Virus record (IMG/VR): IMGVR_UViG_3300032323_001800
Span: 32,001-96,000 of that record
Length of the DNA stretch: 64,000 nucleotides
Direction: 5' to 3' (one strand)
DNA from: a virus
A program made the position numbers and the translations under genes. The notes beneath the pieces are model-generated. The model was given only the letters and a program-made list of their open reading frames with translations, ran no database searches and was not told where the DNA came from. This document shows positions 3,859 to 19,936 of this stretch, piece by piece; position 1 is the stretch's first letter, and each line of letters starts with the position of its first letter.

Positions 3859-3898
3859 GAGAAAGGTTTGATCAGCCATAAATGATTATATTGGTGTT

Positions 3899-3916
3899 TG
3901 CGAGCCCTAAGTCGCA
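3899..3916 (+). promoter_or_regulatory. Hairpin adjacent to the polymerase RBS (putative translational operator)
   Basis: TGCGA-gccctaag-TCGCA (5-bp stem, 8-nt loop) immediately 5' of TAAGGAG...ATG 3928. Confidence 0.45.
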
Positions 3917-3927
3917 TAAGGAGAAAT

Positions 3928-6600
3928 ATGAGTTACGTAGATGCTTTTTATAGCAGAGATACAGACATCGTCTCGGTAGTTGAGCGAGATGACAAAGGAA
4001 AAAGACATTTCCGAGAATATCCTGCAAAATATGTCTTTTATTATCCAGACGCTAAAGGAAAATATACTAGCGTATATGGAGATCAACTAAGCAGAGTCAG
4101 CTGCAAAAATCTTAAAGAATTTCATAAAGAGTTAAGAATTCACAGTAATTCTAAACTATTTGAATCTGACATTAATCCAATCTTTAGAACACTAGAAGAC
4201 AACTATCTAAATGCCGATGCTCCGAAACTTAACGTTGCATGGTTTGATATTGAAGTAGATTTTGATCCAGAACGTGGATACGCATCACCTGATGATGCGT
4301 TTATGCCAATCACTGCTATTGCTGTGTATCTTCAATGGATGGACACTATGGTTTGTTTGGCGGTTCCTCCGAAAACAATGACCATGGATCAAGCTCAAGA
4401 GACTGTAAAAGAATTTACTAACACAATGTTGTTTGACAACGAAGCAGACATGTTAGATACATTTTTAGATCTAATTCAAGATGCTGATGTGTTAAGTGGT
4501 TGGAATTCAGAAGGCTTTGATATTCCCTATACTGTCAATCGTGTTACTAAGGTTCTCAGCAAAGAAGATACAAGAAGATTTTGTCTCTGGGATCAAATGC
4601 CTAAAAAACGTGAATACGAAAAATACGGCAAGGCTGCTGTAACTTATGACTTTTACGGTCGTGTGCATCTTGACAGTCTCGAATTATATAGAAAATACAC
4701 TTATGAAGAACGACATAGTTACAGACTTGACGCCATTGCTGAATACGAACTAGGCGAAACTAAAACACAGTACGAAGGTACATTAGATCAGTTATATAAC
4801 AATGATTTTAAAAAGTTCATTGAATATAACCGCCAAGACTGTATGCTATTAGAAAAACTAGACAGAAAACTAAAATTTTTAGATCTAGCAAATAAACTAG
4901 CACACGAAAACACAGTATTGCTACAAACTACAATGGGTGCCGTTGCTGTTACTGAACAAGCTATTATTAACGAAGCACATCGTAGAGGAATGATTGTTCC
5001 TAATCGTAAAAAGCGAGACGACGAAGTATCTACCCAAGCTGCCGGTGCGTATGTTGCTTATCCTAAAAAAGGCATTCACGAATGGATTGGCTCAGTGGAT
5101 CTTAACTCACTATATCCTTCAGCGATTCGTGCCTTAAACATGGGTCCAGAAACTATTGTTGGACAGTTACGTCCAGACTATACTAAAAATTACATCGAAG
5201 AACAAATGACGCGGCATGGTAAATCGTTTGCTGGTGCGTGGGAAGGATTGTTTTCTTCGTTTGAATATCAGTATGTTATGGAACGAAACGTTGCTAAAGA
5301 AATTACCATTGACTGGGAAGATGGTGGTAGTGATACGCTAAGTGGTGCTCAGATCTATGATTTGATCTTTGAAAGTAATCAACCCTGGATGGTTTCATCT
5401 AATGGTACAATCTTTACCTATGACAAAGACGGAATTATTCCAGGACTGTTAGCTCGCTGGTACAAAGAACGTAAAGAAATGCAGGCCAAACTTAAAGAAT
5501 GTATCGTGGCAGGTAATAAAGTTGAAGAAGAATACTGGGACAAACGTCAGCTGGTCAAAAAAATTAACTTAAACTCATTATATGGTGCTATTCTTAACCC
5601 TGGCTGTAGATTCTTTGACAATCGCATTGGTCAATCAACTACATTAACTGGTAGAACAATTACCAAACACATGGCGTCAAAAATTAACGAAATTATCACA
5701 GGTGAATACGACTACAAAGGTAAGTCGATCATTTATGGTGACACAGATTCTTGTTATTTTTCAGCGTATCCGGTGCTGAAGAAAGAAATTGAAACCGGAA
5801 AACTTCCTTGGACTAAAGAAACGGTGGTAACTTTATATGATCAAATCGCAGACGAAGTCAATTCCAGCTTTATTAAACTCATGCAGGACAGTTTCCATTG
5901 TCCAAAAACAAGAGGAGATGTTATCAAAGCAGGTCGAGAGATTGTCGCATCAAAGGGTCTGTTCATTACTAAGAAGCGATATGCCGTACTCTACTATGAA
6001 AAAGAAGGCAAGCGAGCAGATGTAGAGGGCAAACCAGGCAAGATCAAAGCCATGGGTCTTGATCTTAAACGTTCAGATACTCCTGTAGTCATTCAAGACT
6101 TCTTAAGTGAAGTTTTAACTCGGGTGCTAAATGGCGCAGGTAAGGAAGAAGTGCTGGAATACATTACTGAATTCCGTACTGAGTTCAAAACTAGACCTGG
6201 TTGGGAGAAAGGATCGCCCAAACGTGCTAACAATATCTCGCAATATCGCGACAAAGAAAAGAAAGCAGGCAAGACTAACATGCCCGGACACGTTCGAGCT
6301 GCTCTTAACTGGAACACTTTGAAGCGTATGAACGGTGACAAGTATTCTGTAGCCATAACAGACGGTGCTAAAGTCATTGTCTGTAAGGTTAAAGATAATC
6401 CAATGGGTTATACATCAGTGGCGTATCCAGTAGATGAACTTAGACTACCACAATGGTTTAAGGACTTACCGTTTGATGACGCTGAAATGGAAAGTACTGT
6501 TATTGATGAAAAGCTGGAAAACCTTATCGGTGTTCTAGAATGGGACATTAGTCGAACACGAAGTGACAACAACTTCAACAAATTATTTGATTTTGAATAA
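3928..6600 (+). CDS. DNA polymerase family B
   Basis: Exo motifs FDIEVD, WNSEGFDIPY, YNRQDC. Pol motifs SVDLNSLYPS, KKINLNSLYG, YGDTDS. Start moved to ATG 3928 on the basis of the SD. Confidence 0.97.
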   Translation: MSYVDAFYSRDTDIVSVVERDDKGKRHFREYPAKYVFYYPDAKGKYTSVYGDQLSRVSCKNLKEFHKELRIHSNSKLFESDINPIFRTLEDNYLNADAPKLNVAWFDIEVDFDPERGYASPDDAFMPITAIAVYLQWMDTMVCLAVPPKTMTMDQAQETVKEFTNTMLFDNEADMLDTFLDLIQDADVLSGWNSEGFDIPYTVNRVTKVLSKEDTRRFCLWDQMPKKREYEKYGKAAVTYDFYGRVHLDSLELYRKYTYEERHSYRLDAIAEYELGETKTQYEGTLDQLYNNDFKKFIEYNRQDCMLLEKLDRKLKFLDLANKLAHENTVLLQTTMGAVAVTEQAIINEAHRRGMIVPNRKKRDDEVSTQAAGAYVAYPKKGIHEWIGSVDLNSLYPSAIRALNMGPETIVGQLRPDYTKNYIEEQMTRHGKSFAGAWEGLFSSFEYQYVMERNVAKEITIDWEDGGSDTLSGAQIYDLIFESNQPWMVSSNGTIFTYDKDGIIPGLLARWYKERKEMQAKLKECIVAGNKVEEEYWDKRQLVKKINLNSLYGAILNPGCRFFDNRIGQSTTLTGRTITKHMASKINEIITGEYDYKGKSIIYGDTDSCYFSAYPVLKKEIETGKLPWTKETVVTLYDQIADEVNSSFIKLMQDSFHCPKTRGDVIKAGREIVASKGLFITKKRYAVLYYEKEGKRADVEGKPGKIKAMGLDLKRSDTPVVIQDFLSEVLTRVLNGAGKEEVLEYITEFRTEFKTRPGWEKGSPKRANNISQYRDKEKKAGKTNMPGHVRAALNWNTLKRMNGDKYSVAITDGAKVIVCKVKDNPMGYTSVAYPVDELRLPQWFKDLPFDDAEMESTVIDEKLENLIGVLEWDISRTRSDNNFNKLFDFE

Positions 6601-7400: not shown

Positions 7401-7772
7401 ATGATTAAAGGTATTAATTCTAGCAGTAGATACATTACAGTATCTGGAGGATCTCCATCAAACACATATATCAGTCCTGGCTCTGTTGGGGCTGGTATGA
7501 TCCGGTGGAATCCAAATATGAACTGTATGGAAGTCAATGACGGAAATATGTGGAAAACGCTTGACATGTCTTATGCCTCTGTAGAATTAACGTCCGATGC
7601 CGAATCGTTGCTTGAATGGGCACGTAAAAAGCGTGACAAAGAAACAACATTATATGCCCTAGCTGAAAAAAATTCTGCTGTTAAAATAGCATTAGACAAC
7701 TTAGAACAGGCACAACAACAATTAGAAATTACAGCACATTTAGCGAGAGAACATGAACAAACAACCAGTTGA
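7401..7772 (+). CDS. Hypothetical protein
   Basis: 123 aa with a C-terminal coiled coil, coupled to the clamp and dpdA genes. Confidence 0.75.
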   Translation: MIKGINSSSRYITVSGGSPSNTYISPGSVGAGMIRWNPNMNCMEVNDGNMWKTLDMSYASVELTSDAESLLEWARKKRDKETTLYALAEKNSAVKIALDNLEQAQQQLEITAHLAREHEQTTS

Positions 7773-9282
7773 TTTAACACCATTACAAAAAGACTATGCT
7801 GTCTATTTGCCAGCAATTAGTTCTTTCTATTCTACATACGTTGCTAAACAACGACTAGAAGAATTTATTCCTAAAGATCGTATTCCTAAAGACTTTGATC
7901 GTGGCATTGAAGGTATGAACTTCCTAAATCCCGAACAAGGTTATTTTTACTACAAGTACGGTTTATATTCAGCAGGTCACGCACAACTAGATCTTGAAAA
8001 GTCAATGACTCAAGAGTCAATGATACAAGATCGCGATCGTTCAAAGACAATGATTCTAGGTGACTCCGGTGGATATCAGATTGGTAAAGGTGTTCTTAAG
8101 TTTGATTGGTTAAACTTTGAAGGTCCAGAAGCTACAAAGACTCGTCAAAAGATTCTTGAGTGGTTAGAACTAACTGCTGATTGGTCAATGATGCTGGACG
8201 TTCCGACATGGGCCTGCGATCATATCCATAGTCCAAAGACTGGTTTAAAAACATTTGAGGACTGTCTAGAAAAAACTCGTTACAACAACGACTACTTTCT
8301 AATGAATCGTTTAGGTCAAACTAAATGGTTAAACGTGCTACAGGGTTCGGACTGGGATACAGCAGAACGCTGGTATCAAGGTGTTAAAGAGTTTTCAGAT
8401 CCTAAAGGCAAATACGCTGGTCGAGAAGCTGAAGGTTGGGCAATGGGTGGCGCTAACATGTGTAAGATGCCAATTACACTACGTAGATTAATTACATTAA
8501 AATTTGATGGCTTGCTAGAAGGCAAGGATTGGATGCACTTCTTGGGCACAGCACAGTTGGATTGGGCTTGTTATCTAACATTGATCCAAAGACAAATTAG
8601 AAAACACGTAAATGAAAACTTCACAATTTCCTTTGACTGCGCATCACCTTTCATCGCAACAGCTCACGGATTGGTATATACTAACGCCCAGCACACCAAT
8701 AAGCGATTCTCTGTTATCATGGATAAAGCCCCGGACACTAAGAGTCTTGCCGGACGGCAGGATATACCTTTTCCTTTCGAAAGCGATTTTGGTCGCAGAC
8801 TTACGATCGCAGATATTTGTTACTACGCACCAGGAATGTTGAATAAGATTGGCAAAGAAGGTAAAACATCTTGGGATTCATTTGCTTATGCTCTAATGAT
8901 GGGCCATAATGTTGAATGTCATATCCGTGCTGTTCAACGTGCCTGTAATCTAATGGACATCGAATTAGCAAAACACAATCCGAACTGGCGACAATACACT
9001 AAACCTAGCAGTAAAGAAGTTAATATGCATGAATACTCCGAATGGGTTCCTCGCAATATACTTTACTTTGCAGGGTTTATTGAAGAATTGTTTGAATGTA
9101 AGACTAAAGAAGATGCTTTCCAAATGATCAAAGATGCAGACTTCTTTTTAAAGAATCTTGAAGGTGCTCGATTAAGAGGCGGTGTTACCAACGAGTTTAA
9201 TCGATTGTTCAGCGACGATGATAGTTCAGATTGGGACAATGATCGAGAAGATGATAAATTGGATAGTCTTAAAGTAGAATAA
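7753..9282 (+). CDS. dpdA: TGT-family transglycosylase (DpdA-like 7-deazaguanine DNA insertion enzyme)
   Basis: TGT motifs GDSGGYQ, MMLDVP, VLQG, AMGG, HFLG, SFDCAS and late GHN. folE and queE are nearby. Confidence 0.8.
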   Translation: MNKQPVDLTPLQKDYAVYLPAISSFYSTYVAKQRLEEFIPKDRIPKDFDRGIEGMNFLNPEQGYFYYKYGLYSAGHAQLDLEKSMTQESMIQDRDRSKTMILGDSGGYQIGKGVLKFDWLNFEGPEATKTRQKILEWLELTADWSMMLDVPTWACDHIHSPKTGLKTFEDCLEKTRYNNDYFLMNRLGQTKWLNVLQGSDWDTAERWYQGVKEFSDPKGKYAGREAEGWAMGGANMCKMPITLRRLITLKFDGLLEGKDWMHFLGTAQLDWACYLTLIQRQIRKHVNENFTISFDCASPFIATAHGLVYTNAQHTNKRFSVIMDKAPDTKSLAGRQDIPFPFESDFGRRLTIADICYYAPGMLNKIGKEGKTSWDSFAYALMMGHNVECHIRAVQRACNLMDIELAKHNPNWRQYTKPSSKEVNMHEYSEWVPRNILYFAGFIEELFECKTKEDAFQMIKDADFFLKNLEGARLRGGVTNEFNRLFSDDDSSDWDNDREDDKLDSLKVE

Positions 9283-9283
9283 T

Positions 9284-9312
9284 TTGACTAAGGACTAACT
9301 TGGTGTTATACT
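9284..9312 (+). promoter_or_regulatory. Sigma70-type promoter with extended -10
   Basis: TTGACT(9284)-N17-TATACT(9307), with TGn at 9304-9306. Confidence 0.75.
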
Positions 9313-9343
9313 ACTAACATCAAGTTAATTTTGAGATAGGTAC

Positions 9344-9769
9344 ATGGACAACGAATACGAAAATTTTGCCAAACAAATGGAAGAAAAGTTTCCAAAAATG
9401 TTTGAGCACAAGTATGGTGGATTTGCTGTAGGTCAAGGCTGGTGGCCTATTCTCGAAGCGTTGTGTGCTAATATTCAACAGCATACTGATTGGCGTAACC
9501 GAGAAACTAAAATTGTTCCACAAGTAGTTGTAGAACAGATTAAAGAAAAGTTTGGCGGACTGCGTTTCTACTATCAAGGCGGCGATGAACAGATTCACGG
9601 CATGGTGCGTATGGCAGAAGCATGGGCGGCAAATTGCTGTGAAGAATGTTGCGCACCTGGCAAGCGTAGAGGTGGTGGCTGGATTCGTACGCTGTGTGAT
9701 AAGCACGAAGCAGAACATCAAGAACACCTTCGTACAAGAGAAATGAAACTATCAGGATTTGAAGAATGA
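9344..9769 (+). CDS. Conserved phage hypothetical protein with C-terminal Zn-binding motif
   Basis: QIKEKFGGLRFY core, then CEECxxPG...GWIRTLCxxH. Confidence 0.75.
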   Translation: MDNEYENFAKQMEEKFPKMFEHKYGGFAVGQGWWPILEALCANIQQHTDWRNRETKIVPQVVVEQIKEKFGGLRFYYQGGDEQIHGMVRMAEAWAANCCEECCAPGKRRGGGWIRTLCDKHEAEHQEHLRTREMKLSGFEE

Positions 9770-9936
9770 ACACTTTAAAAAAATGTAATTCCTGCGGTGA
9801 AGACTTAAAGCTAAACGGTATCGGGTGCGACTGGCGTCAAGGACGTTGCCCGCATCGTACTCCAATGCTAACAGATTATCATTTTAGATTTTATAATTTG
9901 GTTCAATTTATTAAAGGATGGTTCGGTCGTGGCTAA
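9766..9936 (+). CDS. Small Cys/His protein (56 aa, not in the ORF track)
   Basis: MNTLKKCNSCGEDLKLNGIGCDWRQGRCPHRTP...GRG*. Overlaps both neighbours by a few bases. Confidence 0.65.
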   Translation: MNTLKKCNSCGEDLKLNGIGCDWRQGRCPHRTPMLTDYHFRFYNLVQFIKGWFGRG

Positions 9937-10453
9937 TTTATATCGTATTACTCCCTTAGAAAAGAAAAACGTCGAATATTTTGTAGATGTTTATGAAGAA
10001 CTAGCAGATGGCACAATCCGAGGATTTGATGTCACTGAAGTATATCGTTGGGGCCAAGGATTTCGAGAAGAAGATAACGAAGTTTATTCTACTGAAATAG
10101 ATCGTGTGCATTGCGATCCTCAAGTTGGTTGGGGTTGCGAACTTGATGATCTGTGTGCTGTGTATGTAAATTTCACAGATGGATTTACTGATCAAGAGAA
10201 AATCGAGATCGAAGCAAGATGCCGTGGAGAGTTAGAAGACGATGACGGTCGATGGGGTACTGCTTGGTTATACGACGGCGACCACAATTGGCAAATTGAA
10301 GACAACTGTGTTTATATTTTGGGTCCCGTAAAGATTGACCTTGTTAATGAAGATACGTATAATGAAGTAGTTGAAGAAAATATTCAACCTAAAGTAATTG
10401 ACCCCAAAACATCATGGCCGTTTAGTCCAGACTTTCCAGATACATCAAAATGA
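9929..10453 (+). CDS. Acidic hypothetical protein
   Basis: 174 aa, GTG start, Asp/Glu-rich. Confidence 0.75.
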   Translation: MANLYRITPLEKKNVEYFVDVYEELADGTIRGFDVTEVYRWGQGFREEDNEVYSTEIDRVHCDPQVGWGCELDDLCAVYVNFTDGFTDQEKIEIEARCRGELEDDDGRWGTAWLYDGDHNWQIEDNCVYILGPVKIDLVNEDTYNEVVEENIQPKVIDPKTSWPFSPDFPDTSK

Positions 10454-10968
10454 ATCGAGATTACACAACAGGAACTGCCGACAACATAGTATTTTTTGTT
10501 GGCAACGAAGTAGAACACACTCCTGCATACGGAATGAAAACATTGTTTGTCACAGGTGTTCAACCTGTAGAAGCAATCATAGGAGCTCTTACTAATCAAG
10601 ATATTACTCATATCTTTTTTGGTGCTAATCATAGTTTTAATCCTAAAGAATTTAATGAACATAAAGAATGGGAAGAAATGATCTTTCACTTTCTTAAACA
10701 AGATTATTTGTGTTCGTTAGATATTCCTATGAGTCAAGTAGAGGAATTTCACGAAAGCGGATACTGCGAATATGATAATTTTATTCCGCAGATTCGTGTG
10801 CCTATTCCTTATATTAAATTGTGGAACTACAACACCATGTTGAAGATCGACGATAAAGATTTTAAAGCAACTAATCCTGGTGTTTGGTCTCACAGTCTGC
10901 ATTCTTTGTTAGACCGTAAAAATTTCACAGATTGGTCCCAATATAAAAATGATGAGATTATAAAATGA
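10450..10968 (+). CDS. Hypothetical protein in the deazaguanine region
   Basis: 172 aa alpha/beta-like protein with motifs GNEVEHTP, HIFFGANHS, KIDDKDF, TNPGVW. Confidence 0.75.
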   Translation: MNRDYTTGTADNIVFFVGNEVEHTPAYGMKTLFVTGVQPVEAIIGALTNQDITHIFFGANHSFNPKEFNEHKEWEEMIFHFLKQDYLCSLDIPMSQVEEFHESGYCEYDNFIPQIRVPIPYIKLWNYNTMLKIDDKDFKATNPGVWSHSLHSLLDRKNFTDWSQYKNDEIIK

Positions 10969-11327
10969 GTACTGGACAAGTATCAGGAGGATGGGCTGTT
11001 GGAAAATCTACCGCTTACCCTAAAACGAGAACTAGAAGAGCAAGGAACACATCACCAATGAAATTAACATTTAAACAACGTATCCGAAACTGGATTATGA
11101 GTGACGACTATGAGCAAGACGTTCCTCAAATAGTAGAATCAGATCGACTGAGCAGCGAAGGTATGCGTATGCAGATCTATAAAGCCAGCGGTGGTTATGT
11201 TGTAGAAACTCGCAGTTACGATAGCCACAAAGATCGTAACAATAATTCAATGCATGTAGTCACTGAAGATCAAGATTTAGGTGACGCATTAGGTAAAATC
11301 GTAATGATGGAGGCACTAAAGCGATGA
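10965..11327 (+). CDS. Hypothetical protein
   Basis: 120 aa, ATGA-coupled. Confidence 0.7.
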   Translation: MSTGQVSGGWAVGKSTAYPKTRTRRARNTSPMKLTFKQRIRNWIMSDDYEQDVPQIVESDRLSSEGMRMQIYKASGGYVVETRSYDSHKDRNNNSMHVVTEDQDLGDALGKIVMMEALKR

Positions 11328-11551
11328 AACATCCTGACCTAAAAGTAAAATCAGTAACTATCAAAGAAAATGCTGCTTACAGAGTTAAAGTAGAATCTTG
11401 GGAAGCTATTGCTCCTAAAGGATTGATTGCTATTCATATCATTCAAGAATGCCTAAATAAAGATGGTAAGGTTGATCTTTCTAGTACATACAGCTATAAT
11501 ATGACTAGAGATGAAATTAGTAACCTTTGTAAGGCATTGTTAGCAGCATGA
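11324..11551 (+). CDS. Hypothetical protein
   Basis: 75 aa, ATGA-coupled. Confidence 0.7.
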   Translation: MKHPDLKVKSVTIKENAAYRVKVESWEAIAPKGLIAIHIIQECLNKDGKVDLSSTYSYNMTRDEISNLCKALLAA

Positions 11552-11943
11552 ACATTAAACAAGACATTCGCCCAAATAAAATGATTTGGGTAACTTTCCG
11601 CAAGGAAGGTATTCATAAATATCCTGCAGCCTTAACAGATCCAAATCTAGCTACAGGAGATGAATATGACGTATCGTTTTTGGGTTATCCCCATCGCCAC
11701 ATTTTTCATTTCAGGGTGTGGATCAATGTGCAACACGATGACCGAGACATCGAATTCATCCAGTTCAAACGATGGCTCGAGTCGTTGTATAATGGTCAAG
11801 GTTCCGTTTTGAGCCTCGATCATAAAAGTTGTGAGATGATGTCAGAAGATTTATATAACATCATCACACTAAAGTATCCAGGTCGAGAGATTTGGATTGA
11901 GGTCTCCGAAGACGGAGAAAATGGTTCATTTATCAAATATTAA
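11548..11943 (+). CDS. QueD-paralogous T-fold protein (DpdL-like predicted CDG decarboxylase)
   Basis: T-fold pattern F..EGIH, LGYPHRHIF (LxxxHRHxF instead of QueD CxxxHGH), DIEFIQFK, LDHKSCE, IEVSEDGE. Confidence 0.6.
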   Translation: MNIKQDIRPNKMIWVTFRKEGIHKYPAALTDPNLATGDEYDVSFLGYPHRHIFHFRVWINVQHDDRDIEFIQFKRWLESLYNGQGSVLSLDHKSCEMMSEDLYNIITLKYPGREIWIEVSEDGENGSFIKY

Positions 11944-11955
11944 TAAGAGGCTATT

Positions 11956-12189
11956 ATGGCTAAGAATTACAAAGATTACGCTTACTTTGAAAACCGCCCC
12001 GACGTTGTTCGTGTATGGGAAGATCTTGAAGCATACAACGACTTTTGTCGTTTCGAGCTTCGTGACTTTAATCCTGCGGAACTGTACCGCAAAGAAGCAC
12101 CCAACTATAGTGCTTACCTAGCAAGTAAGCGTCCTCGTCGCCCGTATCAGGGCAAAAACCCAAGGTTTAACAATCATCGAAATGGCTAA
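11956..12189 (+). CDS. Hypothetical protein
   Basis: 77 aa, SD GAGG, basic C-terminus. Confidence 0.7.
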   Translation: MAKNYKDYAYFENRPDVVRVWEDLEAYNDFCRFELRDFNPAELYRKEAPNYSAYLASKRPRRPYQGKNPRFNNHRNG

Positions 12190-13249
12190 GATATTTTTAG
12201 TCGATCTCGAAGCTGTTGAGACTCGTTACACAGGCGAGTGGAAAGTCCATTTGCCTGAGTTACTAAGAAAGAGAGGACACGATGTTCAAGTTATATCTGG
12301 CCCTACGGATATTCCTACTGCCACTACTCCTGGTGCTTTTCTTAACTTTGGTGGCACCAATATATACAAGGCTAGTCAGGTTGAGCAGATGGGCCGTTTA
12401 TTTTGTAGTGGATCTGTTCATCCTGGCGACCACTTTATTTTTACTGACGCTTGGCATCCGGGCATTATAAATTTAAAGTACATGAGTGAATTGCTGGGCA
12501 TCCCAGTAACAACACATGGCCTATGGCATGCTGGAAGTTATGATCCTCAAGATTTCTTAGGACGACTTGTTGGTGATAAGCCTTGGGTAAGACATGCTGA
12601 GAAAAGTTTTTATGAAGCATTTGATCATAACTACTTTGCCACAGACTTTCATATCGAAATGTTCTTTAAGAACTTGTTTGATACAAAAGTAATTGCTGGC
12701 GCTGATTTTGATGGCAAAGTAGTACGTACAGGGTGGCCAATGGAGTATATGCCTGATACGTTGCTGATGTATAAGAACATGCCCAAGCGTGATCTTATCT
12801 TGTTCCCACATCGTATTGCTCCTGAGAAGCAGGTTGAAATATTCCGTGACTTAAAAGAACACTTACCACAATATGAGTTCGTTGTTTGTCAAGATCAACA
12901 ACTTACAAAAAATGAATATCATAACTTGCTAGGTGAAGCTAAACTAGTATTCAGTGCCAACTTACAAGAAACACTAGGTATCAGTTGGTATGAAGGTGCG
13001 TTAGTTGATGCTATTCCTATGGTGCCAGATCGATTAAGCTATAGTGAAATGGCCTTAGACGAATTTAAGTATCCTTCAGAATGGACTGAATCATTTAAAT
13101 CGTATCAAATACACAGACACTCATTAGTAGAAAAGATTGTAAATTATATGGAAAATTATAAACAATTTCTACCTCGCCTAAATACTCAGGTAACATCTTT
13201 AACGGATAACTTTTTCAGTTGCGATCAACTATTAAAGATGTTAAAATAA
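12182..13249 (+). CDS. GT-B glycosyltransferase (GT4-like)
   Basis: HRIAPEK and E-x7-E (ETLGISWYE) donor-binding motifs, 355 aa. Confidence 0.85.
   Translation: MAKIFLVDLEAVETRYTGEWKVHLPELLRKRGHDVQVISGPTDIPTATTPGAFLNFGGTNIYKASQVEQMGRLFCSGSVHPGDHFIFTDAWHPGIINLKYMSELLGIPVTTHGLWHAGSYDPQDFLGRLVGDKPWVRHAEKSFYEAFDHNYFATDFHIEMFFKNLFDTKVIAGADFDGKVVRTGWPMEYMPDTLLMYKNMPKRDLILFPHRIAPEKQVEIFRDLKEHLPQYEFVVCQDQQLTKNEYHNLLGEAKLVFSANLQETLGISWYEGALVDAIPMVPDRLSYSEMALDEFKYPSEWTESFKSYQIHRHSLVEKIVNYMENYKQFLPRLNTQVTSLTDNFFSCDQLLKMLK
13219..13247 (+). promoter_or_regulatory. Sigma70-type promoter for folE
   Basis: TTGCGA(13219)-N17-TAAAAT(13242), with TGn extension. Confidence 0.5.
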
Positions 13250-13290
13250 CACACATGTGACATCCACGTCATTAACTCGGAGAATATTAA

Positions 13291-14055
13291 TTGACAGAAT
13301 CAAGAACATACCAAAACATACTTGCCGGAGTAGAACAGCAAGGCGATGACAACAAAGATTATAAAGAAGCATACCTAGCAGACGTAATTCGCTTTAAAAT
13401 GAAACGTGACCAAAAGCGTTTCTGGGCAGGTGACAATGTATCGGACTATGTCACTGAAGAAATGAAGCACAAACTCATCGACGAAGCAACAGAAGCATTT
13501 GAATTAGTGCTTGATCGGTTGTTAATCGATCGTGAGAATGATCCTAATAGTCAAGGCACAGCAAGACGACTGGCCAAGATGTACTTTAACGAAATCATGA
13601 GTGGCCGATATGACCCAGCACCAGACGCAACCGCATTCCCCAATGACACAGAAGACCGTTACGAAGGTATGTTGGTTGTTCGTAGTGAGCTTCGCAGTAT
13701 GTGTAGCCATCATCATCAACCTGTGGCTGGCGTTGCTTATATTGGTATTATTGCGGCTTCCAAGCTCATTGGCCTCTCTAAATACACCCGCATCGCACAG
13801 TGGTGTGCAAGACGTGGTACTCTCCAGGAGGAACTTGCTAATGATATTGCTCGCGAGATCGCCAAAGCCACTGGAGCCAAAGACGTAGGCGTATATGTAC
13901 AAGCCGTACATGGCTGCTGTGAGAATCGCGGAATTATGGCACATTCAAGTCTAACACAGACAACAGTATTAAAGGGTGCGTTCAAAGATGACACTAGTAC
14001 AAAGAAAGAATTCTTTGACAACATTAAACTACAACAAGACTTTGCTCCGAGGTAA
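13291..14055 (+). CDS. folE: GTP cyclohydrolase I
   Basis: SMCSHHHQP, IGLSKYTRIA, LQEEL, HGCCENRG. TTG start after SD GGAG. Confidence 0.95.
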   Translation: MTESRTYQNILAGVEQQGDDNKDYKEAYLADVIRFKMKRDQKRFWAGDNVSDYVTEEMKHKLIDEATEAFELVLDRLLIDRENDPNSQGTARRLAKMYFNEIMSGRYDPAPDATAFPNDTEDRYEGMLVVRSELRSMCSHHHQPVAGVAYIGIIAASKLIGLSKYTRIAQWCARRGTLQEELANDIAREIAKATGAKDVGVYVQAVHGCCENRGIMAHSSLTQTTVLKGAFKDDTSTKKEFFDNIKLQQDFAPR

Positions 14056-14058
14056 TAT

Positions 14059-14274
14059 ATGAACTCAGTAGATATGGCTAACGATCTAATTAATCGTGCT
14101 AGAAACTTAAAGAAGTTTGAAGTGAAACGTATGCTAGAAGATGGCATCTTATTCAACGGTCCTGTACCTTTTGATATCAAAGGCCGAGATGATTGCTATT
14201 GGATATATGCCTATGCTGTTACACAAGAAGAAGCAGAAGCACAAGTAGATATGTGGCTAAGCGATCGAACATGA
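14059..14274 (+). CDS. Hypothetical protein
   Basis: 71 aa, SD GAGGT. Confidence 0.7.
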   Translation: MNSVDMANDLINRARNLKKFEVKRMLEDGILFNGPVPFDIKGRDDCYWIYAYAVTQEEAEAQVDMWLSDRT

Positions 14275-14696
14275 TTCACCCGTTGCTAGATGAACTGATG
14301 GTCCAACAACAGTTGCCAGCCGCTGATCGTCGAGAGTGGGCATGGCAGCACATGGTGGCTGTGATCATGCTAAATCAAACCGGAAGGAAGGCGGTGAAAT
14401 ATGTACTGCCTCTTTTCTTAGATCGTTGGCCAACTCCAGAAGAGTTTTTATGGACAACGGATGACGAAGTCAAAGAAGTAATTTGGCCTTTGGGCATGTA
14501 CAATGTCCGTTTCCAACGACTCAAACGTATGACCGCAGATTTTTTGACTTGGGACGGAAATGATGCTACAATGTTATACGGCATCGGCAAGTATGGTTCA
14601 GATAGTTATGAGATTTTTTTCAAAAAAAACTATGTAGTCCAACCCACTGATAAAGAACTCAAACGCTACTTGAAAGAGGAAATATATGTTTCTTAA
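14271..14696 (+). CDS. MBD4-like HhH DNA glycosylase
   Basis: WQHMVAVIMLNQT, PLGMYNVR, HhH LYGIGKYGSDSYEIF with catalytic Asp, PTDKELKRY. Start set at the coupled ATG 14271. Confidence 0.8.
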   Translation: MIHPLLDELMVQQQLPAADRREWAWQHMVAVIMLNQTGRKAVKYVLPLFLDRWPTPEEFLWTTDDEVKEVIWPLGMYNVRFQRLKRMTADFLTWDGNDATMLYGIGKYGSDSYEIFFKKNYVVQPTDKELKRYLKEEIYVS

Positions 14697-15147
14697 ACTG
14701 CTAGAACGATTAGGTCGTAAGCGTATTATTATGGATAGGCTCAGTAACGAACCTTATCTAGAACGATACTACCTATTTCTCAAAGAGAGAACTCTCTTTC
14801 CATTTAACATATTTTTACACAAGTTCTTAAAAGGTGATCCGGACGATGTTCATGATCATCCGTGGCCTTATGCTACATTGATTTTGCGAGGTGGATACTA
14901 TGAATGGATTCCTATTTTTAATACTATCGGCGAAAAAATTAATGAATGTAAAGTTTGGAGAGGTCCTGGTCATTTCCGTATCTGCTCTTCTTCTAGTTAT
15001 CATCGCATTGAGCTAAAAGAAGGTGTAACAGCTTGGACATTGTTTATGCCCGGTCCCCACAAACGCGAATGGGGTTTCTTAGTTAATAACAAGTGGGTGC
15101 AACACGATCAATACCTTAAGGATAGACATGAACAAGCTCATAATTAA
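14686..15147 (+). CDS. Cupin-fold (DSBH) protein
   Basis: HDHPW...ILRGGYYE...HRIEL metal-binding pattern. Confidence 0.65.
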   Translation: MFLKLLERLGRKRIIMDRLSNEPYLERYYLFLKERTLFPFNIFLHKFLKGDPDDVHDHPWPYATLILRGGYYEWIPIFNTIGEKINECKVWRGPGHFRICSSSSYHRIELKEGVTAWTLFMPGPHKREWGFLVNNKWVQHDQYLKDRHEQAHN

Positions 15148-15688
15148 CAACGATCAATTAAAAAATTTAGTTACTAAACTCTGTCGAGACATTACTCTCA
15201 GCGGATGGCAACCTGAATACGTAGTAGGTCTAACCAGAGGTGGTTTAACTCCTGCTGTTATGATCAGTCACTACTTCAACGTACCATGCGAAACCTTAAA
15301 AGTTAGCCTACGTGACGGCGGCGAACCAGAAAGTAATTTATGGATGGCTGAAGATGCATTTGGATACACCTCTAAAGAAGTTGATTTCTTTGAAGGTAAT
15401 CCTATGGAATTGATTAACGAGGGCCGAGCTAAAGAAATATTAATTGTTGATGATATTAACGATTCGGGTGCTACTATAAACTGGATTATGAAAGACTGGC
15501 CTAGTGGTTGTTTTCCTGATGATCCTGTGTGGAAAGAAGTGTGGAACAACAATGTCCGCTTTGCTGTGTTAGTGGATAATCTTGCCAGTCAATGTAATGC
15601 TAAAATGGATTATGTTGGCATGGAAATTAACAAAGCAGAAAACGATGTATGGGTTGATTTTCCCTGGGAAGATTGGTGGCAGAAATGA
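15128..15688 (+). CDS. Purine phosphoribosyltransferase (Gpt/XGPRT-like)
   Basis: VGLTRGG and PRPP loop ILIVDDINDSGAT. Confidence 0.88.
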   Translation: MNKLIINNDQLKNLVTKLCRDITLSGWQPEYVVGLTRGGLTPAVMISHYFNVPCETLKVSLRDGGEPESNLWMAEDAFGYTSKEVDFFEGNPMELINEGRAKEILIVDDINDSGATINWIMKDWPSGCFPDDPVWKEVWNNNVRFAVLVDNLASQCNAKMDYVGMEINKAENDVWVDFPWEDWWQK

Positions 15689-15789
15689 TAGCAGTATGGT
15701 TACTGGTTATTTTTCTTGTTTTGACTGGACATTGGATGTTAGGTCTTATAGTTTCACTAGTAGGAATTTTATTTGAAGGCATAAAATGA
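15685..15789 (+). CDS. 34-aa hydrophobic membrane peptide (not in the ORF track)
   Basis: MIAVWLLVIFLVLTGHWMLGLIVSLVGILFEGIK*. ATGA overlaps at both ends. Confidence 0.65.
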   Translation: MIAVWLLVIFLVLTGHWMLGLIVSLVGILFEGIK

Positions 15790-16016
15790 TTGATGCAAAA
15801 GTAAAAGTACATTGCACTGACGCTGGTAAAGATTTTGAAATGCATGTGTTAGCATATAAACCCAAGACATTTTTAGATGTTGCGTTTCAAACTCTTAAAA
15901 TTCGTTTAGCATATATAGAACGTACAAAAGCGTTTAGAGGTAGTCTAGGTGGTAGAGAATTTGTTATTCGAGAAGAAGATCTTCCACAGGAAAATCGCAA
16001 GGAGTATCAGAGATGA
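15786..16016 (+). CDS. Hypothetical protein
   Basis: 76 aa, coupled. Confidence 0.7.
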   Translation: MIDAKVKVHCTDAGKDFEMHVLAYKPKTFLDVAFQTLKIRLAYIERTKAFRGSLGGREFVIREEDLPQENRKEYQR

Positions 16017-16414
16017 AATCTAACGATACCAATAAAGTTATGCTAGCCCAACCCAACTGTATCGAAGATTCAAAAGCACCATGGGATGATCTTGTAGAGC
16101 AAGATTTTCATGTTAAGGTGTTTGCTGATAAGTATCCTGTCACTGACGGCCACTTGTTGTTCGTACCTAAATATAACACAGTTCATGTACTAATGGATTG
16201 TTTTCATGATGCTGTTCAAGACGGTATTAAAAGAGTACAACTAGGTGAGTGGGACGGATTTAACGTTGGATTTAATTACGGGCAAGCTGCTGGTCAAACA
16301 GTAGATTGGCCACATGTACATCTTATCCCTAGACGCAAGGGAGATATGGAAGACCCCACAGGAGGGGTGCGTCACGTAATACCTGAAAAGGGAAACTATA
16401 GGAAATCAAAATGA
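16013..16414 (+). CDS. HIT-family nucleotide hydrolase
   Basis: GHLLFVPK, GFNVGFNYGQAAGQTV, PHVHLIPRRKGD. The first triad His is replaced by Trp. Confidence 0.88.
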   Translation: MKSNDTNKVMLAQPNCIEDSKAPWDDLVEQDFHVKVFADKYPVTDGHLLFVPKYNTVHVLMDCFHDAVQDGIKRVQLGEWDGFNVGFNYGQAAGQTVDWPHVHLIPRRKGDMEDPTGGVRHVIPEKGNYRKSK

Positions 16415-16614
16415 AAAAGCAAATTGTCGAAACACTAAAGCAACATTTCGAAGCACACATTTTAAAACATAAAATGAATGTTGATATTATGTTAGCTAAT
16501 CCCATGGCCATTCATGATCACACTGATCTAATGGATGCTATTGAAAAAGAAGTTGCTCAGATTGCCGAGTATATGGACAAATTAGAAGTAATGGAGAAAC
16601 ACTTCAGTGAATAA
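16411..16614 (+). CDS. Small helical hypothetical protein
   Basis: 67 aa, coupled. Confidence 0.7.
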   Translation: MKKQIVETLKQHFEAHILKHKMNVDIMLANPMAIHDHTDLMDAIEKEVAQIAEYMDKLEVMEKHFSE

Positions 16615-16801
16615 AGTTACTGTTCCTTGGGAAAGTCAAAATAACGAATGGTGGAATGAAACATGTGCTACTATATGCGAACATTTTGGCCTTCCTGGGG
16701 GAAAGTATGTTACTGAGGTTAATACCGAATGTATGAATTTTATTTTCTACAACGATAAAGATGCTTTGATGTGTAGATTATTAGTTAGTGATAAATTATG
16801 A
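16607..16801 (+). CDS. Hypothetical protein
   Basis: 64 aa, GTG start after GGAG. Confidence 0.65.
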   Translation: MNKVTVPWESQNNEWWNETCATICEHFGLPGGKYVTEVNTECMNFIFYNDKDALMCRLLVSDKL

Positions 16802-17043
16802 CAGATAGAATAATAATTGCAGTATTATTAATTTTTTCTGTTTATGTTTTAATTTCTACCGACTTTGGTAGAAATACAGTAGTGCGATACGACTGTAGAG
16901 ATGCGCATTGGCACCCGGATATTCCTATAGAAGTTAAAAAAGAATGTTCTAAATTATTCTACAAAGAATGGAAAAAACAAGAAGATGAAAGAAAAAATGA
17001 TCCAAGCATACATGAAAACAGCCGAGACCTTCTCAGAACTTAG
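16798..17043 (+). CDS. Membrane-anchored hypothetical protein
   Basis: N-terminal TM segment and two Cys. Confidence 0.6.
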   Translation: MTDRIIIAVLLIFSVYVLISTDFGRNTVVRYDCRDAHWHPDIPIEVKKECSKLFYKEWKKQEDERKNDPSIHENSRDLLRT

Positions 17044-17500
17044 TCATGCTCGTCGATTACATGTTGGTGCTATTGTAGTGAAAGATGATAGAATTATCAG
17101 TATTGGCTATAACGGTATGCCTAGTGGGTGGGATAATAACTGCGAAGATAAAATATGGGATTCGGGCGCAGGCGGGTGGTTGAGTCCTGAAGAGATTATA
17201 GAACAATATCCGTATGAAGGATGGCACGAGGCCGCACAGCGTGATGTGCGCTACGGATTAAAAACTAAACCAGAGGTACTACATGCTGAAACTAATGCCA
17301 TTGCCAAATTGGCTAAATCTAACGAATCTGGTATGGGTGCTACTATGTTTATTACCCATGCTCCATGTTTGGATTGTGCCAAACTTATCTACCAAAGTGG
17401 TATTAGCAGTGTTCTATATCGGAACGCTTATAGGGATACTAGCGGTATTACGTTTCTTGAAAAATCGGGGGTAAAAGTTGAACAATACAATAAAGACTAG
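16985..17500 (+). CDS. dCMP deaminase
   Basis: VGAIVVKDDRIISIGYNG, HAETNAI, THAPCLDC. Confidence 0.92.
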   Translation: MKEKMIQAYMKTAETFSELSHARRLHVGAIVVKDDRIISIGYNGMPSGWDNNCEDKIWDSGAGGWLSPEEIIEQYPYEGWHEAAQRDVRYGLKTKPEVLHAETNAIAKLAKSNESGMGATMFITHAPCLDCAKLIYQSGISSVLYRNAYRDTSGITFLEKSGVKVEQYNKD

Positions 17501-17657
17501 TTGGACTCTTACTGTTGAAGAAGATTCCGACACCGGAGATGCAATAATTCAATTTCCTCCAGATCTGTTAGAGCAAGCAGGATGGAAAGAGGGCGACACA
17601 TTAATTTGGAAAGACCGGGGCGATGGCTCTTGGCTTTTAGAGAAAAAGAGTGTATAA
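17478..17657 (+). CDS. AbrB/SpoVT-like small DNA-binding protein (59 aa, not in the ORF track)
   Basis: TTG start after GGGGG. WTLTVEED..GDAIIQFPPDLLEQAGWKEGDTLIW fits the swapped-hairpin pattern. Confidence 0.65.
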   Translation: MNNTIKTSWTLTVEEDSDTGDAIIQFPPDLLEQAGWKEGDTLIWKDRGDGSWLLEKKSV

Positions 17658-17658
17658 T
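17630..17658 (+). promoter_or_regulatory. Sigma70-type promoter for queE
   Basis: TTGGCT(17630)-N17-TATAAT(17653). ATG 17665 follows after 6 nt. Confidence 0.55.
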
Positions 17659-17664
17659 AGTAAT

Positions 17665-18528
17665 ATGAGTAAAATTAAAATCGCAGAGCTGTTTTACAGC
17701 ATTCAAGGTGAAGGACGCTACATGGGTGTCCCGTCTGTATTTCTACGCACATTTGGTTGTAACTTTAAGTGTGCAGGCTTTGGAATGCCTCGTGATACAA
17801 TCAGTATCGAGGCAGATGACATTGCATACACACACGCAAATATCGAATCGTTTCAAAAATATGAAGACTTGCCGTTAGTTAGCACAGGTTGTGACAGTTA
17901 TGCTTCATGGCATCCTGCGTTCAAAGATTTGTCGCCATTGCTTACTAGCGATGCTATTGTAGAACGTACTATGGAAATTCTTCCTGGTAACAAATGGGGC
18001 GATGCTCACTTGGTTATTACAGGTGGCGAGCCGTTGCTAGGTTGGCAACGTGCTTATCCAGACTTGTTAGAACATCCTAAGATGGGGGATTTAAAAGAGA
18101 TTACTTTTGAAACAAACGGTACTCAAAAATTAAGCGAAGAATTTAAAGAATATCTAGTAAAATGGCAAATGCCTAATTTAGATTTTGCTAGAGAAGTTAC
18201 ATTTAGTGTAAGTGCTAAACTTCCATGTAGTGGTGAGAAATGGGAAGAAGCAATTCTTCCAGAAGTAGTTTGCGAGTATGAAGAAGTTGGTACAGCATAT
18301 TTGAAGTTTGTTATTGCCACTGAACAAGACTTTAAAGACGCAGAGTGTGCTATTGCCGCTTATCGTAAAGCAGGATTCAAAGGGCATGTTTATCTAATGC
18401 CAGTGGGCGGTGTTGAAAGTGTATATGCACTAAACAATCGCACAGTAGCAGACCTAGCAATGAAAAACGGTCTTCGTTACAGTGATAGATTGCAGGTGCC
18501 GTTATTTAAAAACGAGTGGGGGACATAA
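17665..18528 (+). CDS. queE: 7-carboxy-7-deazaguanine synthase (radical SAM)
   Basis: IAELFYSIQGEGRYMGVPSVFLRTFGCNFKC...GCDS, LVITGGEPLL, FETNGT, RYSDRLQVPLF. Confidence 0.9.
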   Translation: MSKIKIAELFYSIQGEGRYMGVPSVFLRTFGCNFKCAGFGMPRDTISIEADDIAYTHANIESFQKYEDLPLVSTGCDSYASWHPAFKDLSPLLTSDAIVERTMEILPGNKWGDAHLVITGGEPLLGWQRAYPDLLEHPKMGDLKEITFETNGTQKLSEEFKEYLVKWQMPNLDFAREVTFSVSAKLPCSGEKWEEAILPEVVCEYEEVGTAYLKFVIATEQDFKDAECAIAAYRKAGFKGHVYLMPVGGVESVYALNNRTVADLAMKNGLRYSDRLQVPLFKNEWGT

Positions 18529-18953
18529 TGAATATAATCAAAAAATTACTAGGCATAGACAAGCTAGAAAAAGAAAAAGAAGCATTACAAATAGCTAGAG
18601 ACAAAGCAGTAGCCGAAACAGTCAGAGCCCAAGAAGAAGAAGCACAGGCTAAACTAACTCCTAAAGAAAGAGCAACTGCTCGAGGAGAACCATACATTGC
18701 CGTTCTTGATACCAAGGTGAATCCGGACAATATTCGTAATGGCTTTTTTGAACTTGACTGGAATGATCAATTTCTGTTACAATTAAAGCAAGAAGGCTAC
18801 GGGTTCGACGGCGATGCTGAAGAAGAAATTGTAGATCGTTGGTTTAGAGATATTGTTCGACAAATGCTTGATGAGGACGGCCTTGATTCTAATAGGCCGG
18901 CTGGTTATATTAACGTAATTCCAATAGCTAAAGGCAAAGCAGAAGTTTCATGA
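18528..18953 (+). CDS. Conserved hypothetical protein
   Basis: N-terminal coiled coil and NGFFELDWN. Start at the TAATG overlap. Confidence 0.75.
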   Translation: MNIIKKLLGIDKLEKEKEALQIARDKAVAETVRAQEEEAQAKLTPKERATARGEPYIAVLDTKVNPDNIRNGFFELDWNDQFLLQLKQEGYGFDGDAEEEIVDRWFRDIVRQMLDEDGLDSNRPAGYINVIPIAKGKAEVS

Positions 18954-19936
18954 CATATATTTTAGTAGATACTGCTAACACATTCTTCCGTGCTAGACAC
19001 GTAATTCGCGGCGATGCTGACATTAAGTTGGGCATGGCGTTTCACATCACTTTAAATTCCATCAAAAAAGCATGGAAAGACTTTGAGGGGAAACATGTAG
19101 TGTTCTGTCTCGAAGGTCGTAGTTGGCGTAAAGACTACTATGCTCCGTATAAACGTAATCGTTCGGATGCTCGTGCTGCGCTAACTCCTTCAGAACAAGA
19201 AGAAGATAAAATATTCTGGGAAGCATTTGATACATTCAAAGATTTCGTCACGGAAAAAACTAATTGTACAGTACTACAACATCCGCAACTAGAAGCAGAC
19301 GATTTGATTGCTGGATTTATTCAATCGCACCCAAACGATAATCATGTTATCATTTCAACTGATACCGACTTCGTTCAACTTATTGCCCCCAATGTAAAAC
19401 AATATAACGGTGTTCAGGAATGTACAATTACACATGAGGGATACTTTGATGACAAGGGCAAACGAATTATTGACAAGAAAACACAAGAAGCAAAAATTGC
19501 TCCTAACCCAGAATGGCTCTTGTTTGAAAAATGTATGCGTGGTGATACCAGTGATAATGTCTTCTCGGCGTATCCAGGTGTGCGTGTTAAAGGTACTAAA
19601 AACAAAGTTGGTCTTACTGAAGCGTTCGAAGATCGTAACAGCAAAGGATTTTCGTGGAACAATCTCATGCTACAGAGATGGACTGATCACGAAGGTCAAG
19701 AACATCGTGTGTTAGAAGACTATAATCGTAATCGACAATTGATCGATCTTACACAGCAGCCAGAAGATATTCGAGCAGTTATTAATGAAACTATTTCGTC
19801 TGCCACTCAAGCAGATAAAAATATTAGTCAAGTCGGTATCAGACTTATTAAGTTCTGCAATTTGTATGATCTTAAAAAAATTGCGGATCAAGCACAAGCA
19901 TATGCTGAACCATTAAATGCGAGGTATAAACAATGA
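18950..19936 (+). CDS. rnh: T4 RNase H-like 5'-3' exonuclease/flap endonuclease
   Basis: ILVDTAN, EADDLIA, ISTDTDFVQL, RGDTSDNV. Confidence 0.9.
   Translation: MTYILVDTANTFFRARHVIRGDADIKLGMAFHITLNSIKKAWKDFEGKHVVFCLEGRSWRKDYYAPYKRNRSDARAALTPSEQEEDKIFWEAFDTFKDFVTEKTNCTVLQHPQLEADDLIAGFIQSHPNDNHVIISTDTDFVQLIAPNVKQYNGVQECTITHEGYFDDKGKRIIDKKTQEAKIAPNPEWLLFEKCMRGDTSDNVFSAYPGVRVKGTKNKVGLTEAFEDRNSKGFSWNNLMLQRWTDHEGQEHRVLEDYNRNRQLIDLTQQPEDIRAVINETISSATQADKNISQVGIRLIKFCNLYDLKKIADQAQAYAEPLNARYKQ

Follow-up and report, generated by a model that had tools for sequence, protein, structure and literature searches.

A probable QueC-independent 7-deazaguanine DNA-modification system in the replication module of a jumbo phage distantly related to PA5oct

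The IMG/VR virus record IMGVR_UViG_3300032323_001800 derives from a jumbo phage whose genome is about 350 kb and which is a distant relative of Pseudomonas phage PA5oct. We analysed bases 32001-96000 of this 187,929-bp record (CheckV completeness 53%), a stretch of 64,000 nucleotides that we call the window and in whose numbering positions are given unless stated otherwise. Between positions 7753 and 18528, which are the start of the first open reading frame (ORF) and the end of the last, lies a cluster that encodes a DpdA-type transglycosylase, the QueD paralogue DpdL, GTP cyclohydrolase I (FolE) and a QueE-like radical SAM enzyme. We think it probable that this cluster is a QueC-independent 7-deazaguanine DNA-modification system in which the DpdA protein inserts a base made by DpdL, giving deoxy-7-deazaguanine (dDG) or a close derivative in the phage DNA. 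A preliminary description of this DNA had treated the core combination of genes as uncharacterised. However, DpdA with DpdL, FolE and QueE and without QueC was published in 2023, and the core was thus already described, since the published DpdL phages phiST and ACP17 hold the same genes (PMC10516641). What is new is a large DpdA clade that Pfam misses and that PA5oct shares, a glycosyltransferase (GT) gene of GT4-like type that lies near DpdL, often adjacent to it, across many phage lineages together with two further conserved genes, o172 and a phosphoribosyltransferase (PRT) gene, and an apparent mimicry of the polymerase C-terminus by the DpdA tail. The genes of the proposed module are as follows.

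7753-9282, + strand: DpdA-like DNA guanine transglycosylase of a divergent clade, here DpdAx (509 aa; TGT fold, hhalign match to DpdA2)
10450-10968, + strand: conserved 172-aa ORF, here o172, a candidate module partner (recurrence in related loci)
11548-11943, + strand: DpdL, QueD paralogue and proposed 7-carboxy-7-deazaguanine decarboxylase (131 aa; LGYPHRHIF, phrog_17812)
12182-13249, + strand: GT4-like glycosyltransferase, GT-B fold, retaining type (AlphaFold2 model, EX7E motif, linkage to DpdL)
13291-14055, + strand: GTP cyclohydrolase I, FolE (PF01227, E 5e-39, 134 bits, residues 76-245; the TTG at 13291 may lie upstream of the true start)
15128-15688, + strand: purine PRT of xanthine/guanine type (PF00156, 46.5 bits)
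17650-18528, + strand: QueE-like radical SAM enzyme, 7-carboxy-7-deazaguanine synthase (phrog_2076 'QueE-like', E 3e-50, full length)

All genes from position 1 to about 24000 of the window lie on the + strand. The cluster sits inside the replication module, because it is flanked by the family-B DNA polymerase (PolB, 3898-6600, a single 900-aa ORF) and a 5'-3' exonuclease (18950-19936). A Megablast comparison of the region with GenBank phages gave no match. Every gene that the preliminary description had named (a TGT-fold gene, a T-fold gene, folE, queE, a GT4, an MBD4-like glycosylase, a cupin, a PRT and a HIT hydrolase) is present, on the + strand and in the place assigned to it.

From the gene identities, the folds and the conservation of the gene set, we infer each enzymatic activity and the base that the DNA would carry. 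FolE would convert GTP to dihydroneopterin triphosphate, from which QueD, a gene seen in relatives of this phage, would make 6-carboxytetrahydropterin (CPH4), and the QueE-like enzyme would turn this into 7-carboxy-7-deazaguanine (CDG). DpdL would then decarboxylate CDG to 7-deazaguanine, as proposed for phiST, and the TGT-fold DpdA would exchange guanine in the phage DNA for that base, yielding dDG or a close derivative and blocking G-dependent restriction. The PRT would recycle the released guanine to GMP and so feed FolE. In addition, the tail of DpdA may tether the enzyme to the sliding clamp, and the GT4-like enzyme and o172 may take part in a further step. The idea of a QueC-independent 7-deazaguanine DNA-modification cluster had been put forward in the preliminary description and is supported by these identities, folds and conserved genes. 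The product class suggested there, dDG or its carboxylated counterpart dCDG, is in our judgement the right one.

DpdL is defined by the motif LxxxHRHxF in place of the CxxxHGH of QueD (PMC10516641), and the LGYPHRHIF of the 131-aa ORF fits this pattern. The ORF matches phrog_17812 (E 1e-33) and is 55% identical to DpdL of Acidovorax phage ACP17 (E 2e-42) and 34% identical to phiST CGPG_00067 (E 1e-14). Across 18 homologues, H23, L45, H49-R50-H51, F53 and S94-C95-E96 are invariant. HHpred places the phiST homologue in PF01242 at 99.9%, and DpdL has been found in phages that encode DpdA, FolE, QueD and QueE and lack QueC (PMC10516641). Here, DpdL is encoded with DpdA, FolE and QueE, likewise without QueC. 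By these sequence features, the ORF is assigned to DpdL. The preliminary description was right to call it a QueD paralogue, but the paralogue does not stand in for QueD. We rejected such a replacement because relatives carry both genes, as do PA5oct, ACP17 and phiST; in one related locus of the second group described below, QueD and DpdL lie side by side.

The AlphaFold2 model of DpdAx has a mean predicted local distance difference test (pLDDT) of 91.5 and a predicted template-modelling score (pTM) of 0.90, with residues 475-509 forming a disordered tail. When the model was compared with the PDB by Foldseek, the 50 best matches listed were all tRNA-guanine transglycosylases (TGTs), with probability 1.0 and E values of about 1e-7. 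VIA-align superposed about 300-305 residues on solved TGTs (Z 19-20, root-mean-square deviation (rmsd) 4.5 Å). The TGT-type (beta/alpha)8 barrel predicted for DpdAx is thus confirmed at the level of the model. A PDB sequence search with the 509-aa protein gave no match. DpdAx contains the sequence GDSGGYQ, and among 59 diverse homologues D104, S105 and G107 of the DSGG motif, H262 and D295 are invariant, with Q109 and D149 nearly so. These conserved motifs align by hhalign with DSGGLQ, FDE and SYDS of DpdA2.

The profile comparison of DpdAx with DpdA2 gave a probability of 97.4% and an E value of 1.4e-11 over 183 core columns. The DpdA2 alignment took in the enzyme of ACP17 and the experimentally validated enzymes of nt-1 and VH7D, and this match therefore supports the DpdA assignment (PMC10516641). 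At the pairwise level, tblastn with DpdAx reaches no DpdA2 phage, and the ACP17 enzyme is 22% identical (E 0.002). The comparison with DpdA3 was marginal (hhalign 62.8% over only 85 columns; BLASTP E 0.39; 509 versus 259 aa), which places DpdAx, by sequence comparison, outside the DpdA3 subfamily. We read DpdAx as a separate DpdA clade that is probably sister to DpdA2, the subfamily nearest to it by profile comparison.

The clade is large, with 881 clusters at 50% identity (E <= 0.001) among 1.8 billion representative proteins and more than 7,600 variants in the 90% database. By tblastn, the only cultured phages that carry it are the PA5oct-like Pseudomonas jumbo phages (41-42% identity; EST35_0316 of PA5oct, about 41%), Sinorhizobium phage Phosso and Vibrio phage 2.275.O. 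Linkage of DpdAx to 7-deazaguanine synthesis genes is seen in this window, in PA5oct, in Vibrio phage 2.275.O and in 160 uncultured loci. In 2.275.O, QueF lies two genes downstream of the homologue, together with a YhhQ-type transporter, a queuosine-synthesis gene and FolE, and this links the clade to more than one type of deazaguanine pathway.

Both enzymes that would lead to CDG in this window are recognisable. The NCBIfam FolE models match FolE below their curated cut-offs, in addition to the Pfam match given above. Five QueE NCBIfam models match the QueE-like protein, also below cut-off (E 1e-9 to 1e-15), and the Pfam Radical_SAM score is 25.8 bits, under the 29.5 cut-off. From its sequence, we classify this protein as a divergent radical SAM enzyme of the QueE type.

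The preliminary description had seen no QueC, QueF or ArcS in the window and had proposed an HMM search of the whole genome for QueC, QueD and QueF. The observation holds beyond the window. In the entire 187,929-bp record, which is 53% complete, hidden Markov models (HMMs) found no QueC (PF06508), QueF, ArcS/DUF5591, canonical TGT, PTPS/QueD or PAPS-reductase-type PP-loop protein. A 353-kb relative that is 98% complete also lacks QueC, QueF and ArcS, save for one weak PP-loop match. This is a 310-aa protein of the relative G001 (locus 69937-73134) with the motif SGGADS, encoded about 70 kb from the module and absent from our record. Its alignment with the QueC profile covers only positions 4-68, and its score is 25-30 bits where the equivalog cut-off is 150 bits. 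We did not count it as QueC, since the match covers only the PP-loop region, there is no PDB match and the gene adjoins a fatty-acid desaturase; we treat it provisionally as a generic PP-loop ATPase. A separate PP-loop observation concerns Xanthomonas phage X1, whose DpdL-type cluster has a PAPS-reductase-family PP-loop protein adjoining FolE (70090-70623). With such a protein, the carboxyl group might be handled by another chemistry in that lineage.

Three related records encode a Pfam-significant QueD, among them the 353-kb record. In that relative, a family I DAHP synthase gene lies directly downstream of QueD. In our record, the DAHP synthase lies at 179324-180097 of the record, outside the window and near the 3' end, and the gene order differs between the two. 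With a half-genome record, a changed gene order and the QueD neighbour of the relative near the 3' end of our record, a loss of QueD is unsupported. QueD probably lies in the missing half of the genome, an assembly gap; otherwise the host enzyme would be used.

We compared two groups of uncultured loci searched with the proteins of the window. Set 1 consists of 80 loci that surround genes closely related to the DpdA of the window, and set 2 of 80 loci that surround relatives of the glycosyltransferase of Synechococcus phage BUCT-ZZ01. Many of the loci are incomplete, so the following counts are minima.

DpdA clade: 80/80 in set 1, 74/80 in set 2
o172: 70/80 in set 1, 68/80 in set 2
DpdL: 64/80 in set 1, 75/80 in set 2
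GT: 56/80 in set 1, 74/80 in set 2
FolE: 50/80 in set 1, 56/80 in set 2
PRT: 33/80 in set 1, 49/80 in set 2
QueE: 36/80 in set 1, 17/80 in set 2
Cupin: 40/80 in set 1, 3/80 in set 2
HIT: 31/80 in set 1, 4/80 in set 2
HhH: 20/80 in set 1, 5/80 in set 2
dCMP deaminase: 4/80 in set 1, 0/80 in set 2

Most of the ten set 2 loci that we inspected have the order DpdA, o172, DpdL, GT, followed by FolE, PRT, (QueD) and QueE. This order is kept even though the set 2 glycosyltransferases are only about 24% identical to the one in the window. A clustering that is seen again in 160 related loci is not due to chance. The counts and gene order of both sets together define a stable core of DpdA, o172, DpdL and GT plus FolE, PRT and QueE.

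Several points weigh against the proposed pathway. DpdAx has no Pfam or PHROG match and is missed by the Pfam TGT HMM (PF01702), and the Pfam PTPS HMM does not match DpdL. For DpdAx, as for every member of its clade, base exchange on DNA rather than tRNA is a predicted activity, for which the restriction resistance of PA5oct DNA is indirect evidence (PMC12191111). QueD was not found in the 188-kb record, either by HMM or by BLAST with three phage QueDs, although this absence bears no weight because the record is about half of a genome. The decarboxylase activity of DpdL is a prediction in the literature as well, and dpdL plus dpdA of phiST or ACP17 gave no dDG in E. coli, a failure that led the authors to suggest that other enzymes may be needed (PMC10516641). 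Finally, the product in phages that carry the GT may differ from dDG, because phiST, the only DpdL phage of known DNA chemistry, has DpdA3 and no GT.

The AlphaFold2 model of the glycosyltransferase (pLDDT 87.9) superposes on sucrose-phosphate synthase, BshA, MshA and GlgM with VIA Z scores of 24-25.6 (rmsd about 3.1 Å, 304-317 residues). Pfam Glycos_transf_1 does not match the protein, and no significant match came from searching PDB sequences with its profile. It would be an active enzyme, judging by an EX7E motif at residues 263-271 and by many invariant residues. The nearest structures are GT4 enzymes that mostly use small-molecule, lipid or glycan acceptors; the T4-type DNA glucosyltransferases AGT and BGT are absent among the 50 best PDB or BFVD matches listed, an absence to which we attach no weight.

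Homologues are found no more than a few kb away from DpdL in Phosso, ACP17, PA5oct, Xanthomonas phages X1 and BUDD, BUCT-ZZ01 and Burkholderia phage BCSR5, and directly adjoin it in Phosso, ACP17, PA5oct and BUCT-ZZ01. In Phosso, DpdL and the GT are still adjacent even though DpdA is 170 kb away. RHph_I1_18 and Ahp1 have DpdL, FolE and QueE and no GT nearby. Because phiST makes dDG without a GT and these two phages have DpdL without one nearby, the GT is not needed for dDG itself. Distant homologues in Xanthomonas PhiXhv phages, PhiXhv-15 among them, sit with GlmS and a BshB-like deacetylase and have no deazaguanine genes around them; the GT family as a whole thus extends beyond this pathway. 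The PhiXhv neighbourhood looks like a cassette for GlcNAc/GlcN transfer.

The other conserved partner, o172, belongs to no family in Pfam, PHROG, NCBIfam or Atlas, and a search for fused forms returned only two probable mis-calls. In related loci it usually lies between DpdAx and DpdL, and a homologue stands just upstream of the DpdA2 gene of ACP17 (HMM E 1.9e-46). An HMM search found no o172 in the PA5oct cluster.

A tentative alternative, which we consider rather unlikely, is that the base is a further decorated 7-deazaguanine, to which the GT, perhaps with o172, would add a sugar or a similar group, either on a small-molecule intermediate before insertion or on the base in the DNA. The preliminary description had raised possible decoration by the accessory enzymes. 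The HhH, HIT and cupin genes vary among relatives, whereas the GT4-like gene, o172 and the PRT are retained alongside DpdL and DpdA in divergent lineages, which makes further decoration of the base conceivable. At least six divergent cultured lineages have the GT no more than a few kb from DpdL, four of them with adjacent genes, and the two occur together in 56/80 and 74/80 of the uncultured loci, although the two GT groups are only about 24% identical. Its EX7E motif and invariant residues also fit an active role, and the unproductive dpdL plus dpdA expression, for which other enzymes were suggested, would fit a missing partner (PMC10516641). On the other hand, 7-deazaguanine offers no hydroxyl for glycosylation, phiST makes dDG without a GT, and RHph_I1_18 and Ahp1 have DpdL, FolE and QueE with no GT nearby. 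The nearest structures to the GT are GT4 enzymes mostly of the small-molecule, lipid or glycan type and not DNA glucosyltransferases. We know of no glycosylated purine in phage DNA, which also counts against this alternative.

Part of the case for a decorated purine is that a pyrimidine acceptor is hard to find. We considered the GT as a glucosyltransferase of hydroxymethylcytosine or hydroxymethyluracil and rejected this role. No ThyA-type hydroxymethylase was found in this phage record or in its 98%-complete relative. ThyX is encoded at 22928-23521, and ThyX and dCMP deaminase would give ordinary dTMP. A hydroxymethyl-pyrimidine acceptor is therefore unlikely, and pyrimidine metabolism, judged from these genes, looks ordinary and without a hydroxymethyl-pyrimidine pathway.

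The tail of DpdAx resembles the C-terminus of the polymerase encoded by the same phage. Residues 475-509 carry FNRLF (tail region 9200-9282), and PolB ends in NFNKLFDFE (C-terminal region 6560-6600). The corresponding pair in PA5oct is SFNSLF and HFDSLFGW; in ACP17, DpdA and the polymerase both end alike at the very C-terminus (LDELFE and LDDLFE), and in Phosso the pairing is looser. FxxLF occurs in the last 70 residues of 17/107 full-length DpdAx family representatives, about tenfold more than in shuffled tails (mean 1.7), and in 0.7% of body segments. It is also present in 36/65 set 2 proteins. In T4-like phages, a C-terminal peptide of the polymerase binds the sliding clamp. It is a reasonable idea that DpdA may be tethered to the clamp through its polymerase-like tail, which suggests how guanine exchange could be coupled to replication. 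Going further, the phages that have both GT and DpdL (this group, PA5oct, ACP17, Phosso and T4-like aquatic phages) might carry an undescribed glycosylated or extended 7-deazaguanine, made with the GT and o172 and installed by a clamp-tethered, unclassified DpdA clade. We offer this as speculation and consider it rather unlikely.

The PRT matches the xanthine and hypoxanthine PRT models of NCBIfam below their cut-offs. Its homologue adjoins QueE in PA5oct and BUCT-ZZ01 and stands next to QueE or FolE in many loci. The simplest reading is guanine salvage, because each exchange would free one guanine and FolE would consume GTP.

The PRT could also belong to a different route, in which some or all of the modified base would be incorporated before or during replication. 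The PRT would make a nucleotide of 7-deazaguanine (or CDG) that is then reduced, phosphorylated and used by PolB, leaving DpdA with a secondary or proofreading role. The recurrence of a purine PRT in the module (in this phage, PA5oct, BUCT-ZZ01 and many uncultured loci) and the position of the cluster between PolB and the 5'-3' exonuclease are compatible with this, as is the nucleoside of 7-amido-7-deazaguanine (ADG) reported upon infection of cells with Campylobacter phage CP220 (quoted in PMC10516641). However, DpdA is conserved above all other members of the module, with its catalytic motifs intact, and according to the published view every known 7-deazaguanine DNA modification arises after replication (PMC10516641). 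The region yielded no dGTP-specific hydrolase, the sole MazG-like match being in the relative and far from the module, and salvage of released guanine explains the PRT more simply. We consider incorporation by the polymerase improbable.

Very improbable, finally, is that DpdL is no decarboxylase and the DNA carries dCDG or another base, or that the T-fold protein and the GT make a glycosylated pterin-type metabolite unrelated to DNA: the published activity of DpdL is itself predicted (PMC10516641) and tetrahydrobiopterin glucosyltransferases are among the structural matches of the GT, but these rank only 32nd to 45th, level with many other GT4 enzymes, the module always includes DpdA, and QueE wherever the locus extends far enough, and phiST DNA contains dDG and no dCDG (PMC10516641). 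The metabolite version draws on gene content. A combination of FolE, a PTPS-like T-fold protein and a GT resembles the cyanobacterial route to pterin glycosides.

Insertion by DpdA of a 7-deazaguanine made by DpdL thus stays our preferred reading, and the remaining genes of the region add little to its definition. They are listed here.

14193-14696, + strand: MBD4-like HhH-GPD DNA glycosylase, variable accessory gene (PF00730, 32 bits; start uncertain)
14686-15147, + strand: cupin-like protein, variable accessory gene (153 aa; only phrog_4786 'cysteine dioxygenase', E 9e-36)
16013-16414, + strand: HIT-family nucleotide hydrolase/transferase, variable accessory gene (PF01230, 35.8 bits)
16985-17500, + strand: dCMP deaminase (PF00383, 73.5 bits)

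The HhH-GPD protein matches structures of the MBD4 glycosylase domain (E 1e-15), shows no obvious Fe-S cluster and is present in about a quarter of close relatives. For the cupin-like protein, there was no Pfam or PDB sequence match. The dCMP deaminase probably lies outside the module and serves ordinary dTMP supply with ThyX. Because the HhH, HIT, cupin and dCMP deaminase genes vary among close relatives, they are weak candidates for defining an extra step. A 141-aa ORF at 9344-9769 has a cysteine-rich block (CCEECC...C...H) and is found in 25/80 close relatives.

Phage DNA that carries 7-deazaguanine modifications is shielded from restriction, and newly found defence nucleases sense such modifications. 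DpdL is usually accompanied by a GT4-like enzyme that has no place in the published pathway, and this enzyme may be the reason why dpdL plus dpdA alone yielded no product in E. coli. A concrete gene set that can be taken to cultured phages emerges from the window.

The closest system of known chemistry is the dDG route of Cellulophaga phage phiST, which uses DpdA3, DpdL, FolE, QueD and QueE (Cui, Hutinet et al., Nucleic Acids Research 2023; PMC10516641). In phiST DNA, all G is replaced by dDG and dCDG is absent (PMC10516641). Like phiST, the phage studied here lacks QueC, has FolE and QueE for CDG, an LxxxHRHxF DpdL and a transglycosylase of the TGT superfamily, and its cluster adjoins polymerase genes. 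Unlike DpdAx, the phiST transglycosylase is a DpdA3, with no BLAST similarity between the two. phiST also has no GT4-like gene, o172 or PRT, a MazG-like gene adjoins its DpdL, and it encodes QueD, whereas none is present in the sequenced part of the genome here.

At the level of fold, DpdAx shares with the bacterial and archaeal TGTs (PF01702) the barrel and the DSGGxQ active-site motif. It differs in being about 15% identical to solved structures, and it carries an additional helical region at the C-terminus as well as a disordered acidic tail. It is encoded among genes of DNA replication and deazaguanine synthesis, compared with a context of tRNA modification for TGT.

In gene content, ACP17 comes nearer than phiST. 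Its cluster comprises QueD, FolE, ASD50402, the DpdA2-type ASD50403, the GT-like ASD50404, DpdL (ASD50405) and QueE, and shares with the window homologues of o172, the GT (37% identity), DpdL (55%), FolE and QueE. The run of o172 homologue, DpdA, GT and DpdL is close to the arrangements in set 2 and PA5oct. However, the ACP17 transglycosylase belongs to DpdA2, being 34-36% identical to the nt-1 and VH7D enzymes.

PA5oct (Wroclawvirus) is a phage-therapy candidate whose transglycosylase belongs to the very large clade missed by Pfam. Its genes EST35_0316-0322 share with the window the DpdA clade (41%), the GT-like protein (41%), DpdL (55%), the PRT and QueE, and they too lie between PolB and an RNaseH/5'-3' exonuclease. 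By contrast, its PolB is split by a homing endonuclease (216595-221821), two PTPS-type genes lie about 55 kb away, and the cluster genes are annotated as 'hypothetical'. PA5oct virion DNA resists several restriction enzymes with G-containing sites, from which its authors inferred a modified G, noting only QueE and a PTPS-like gene (PMC12191111).

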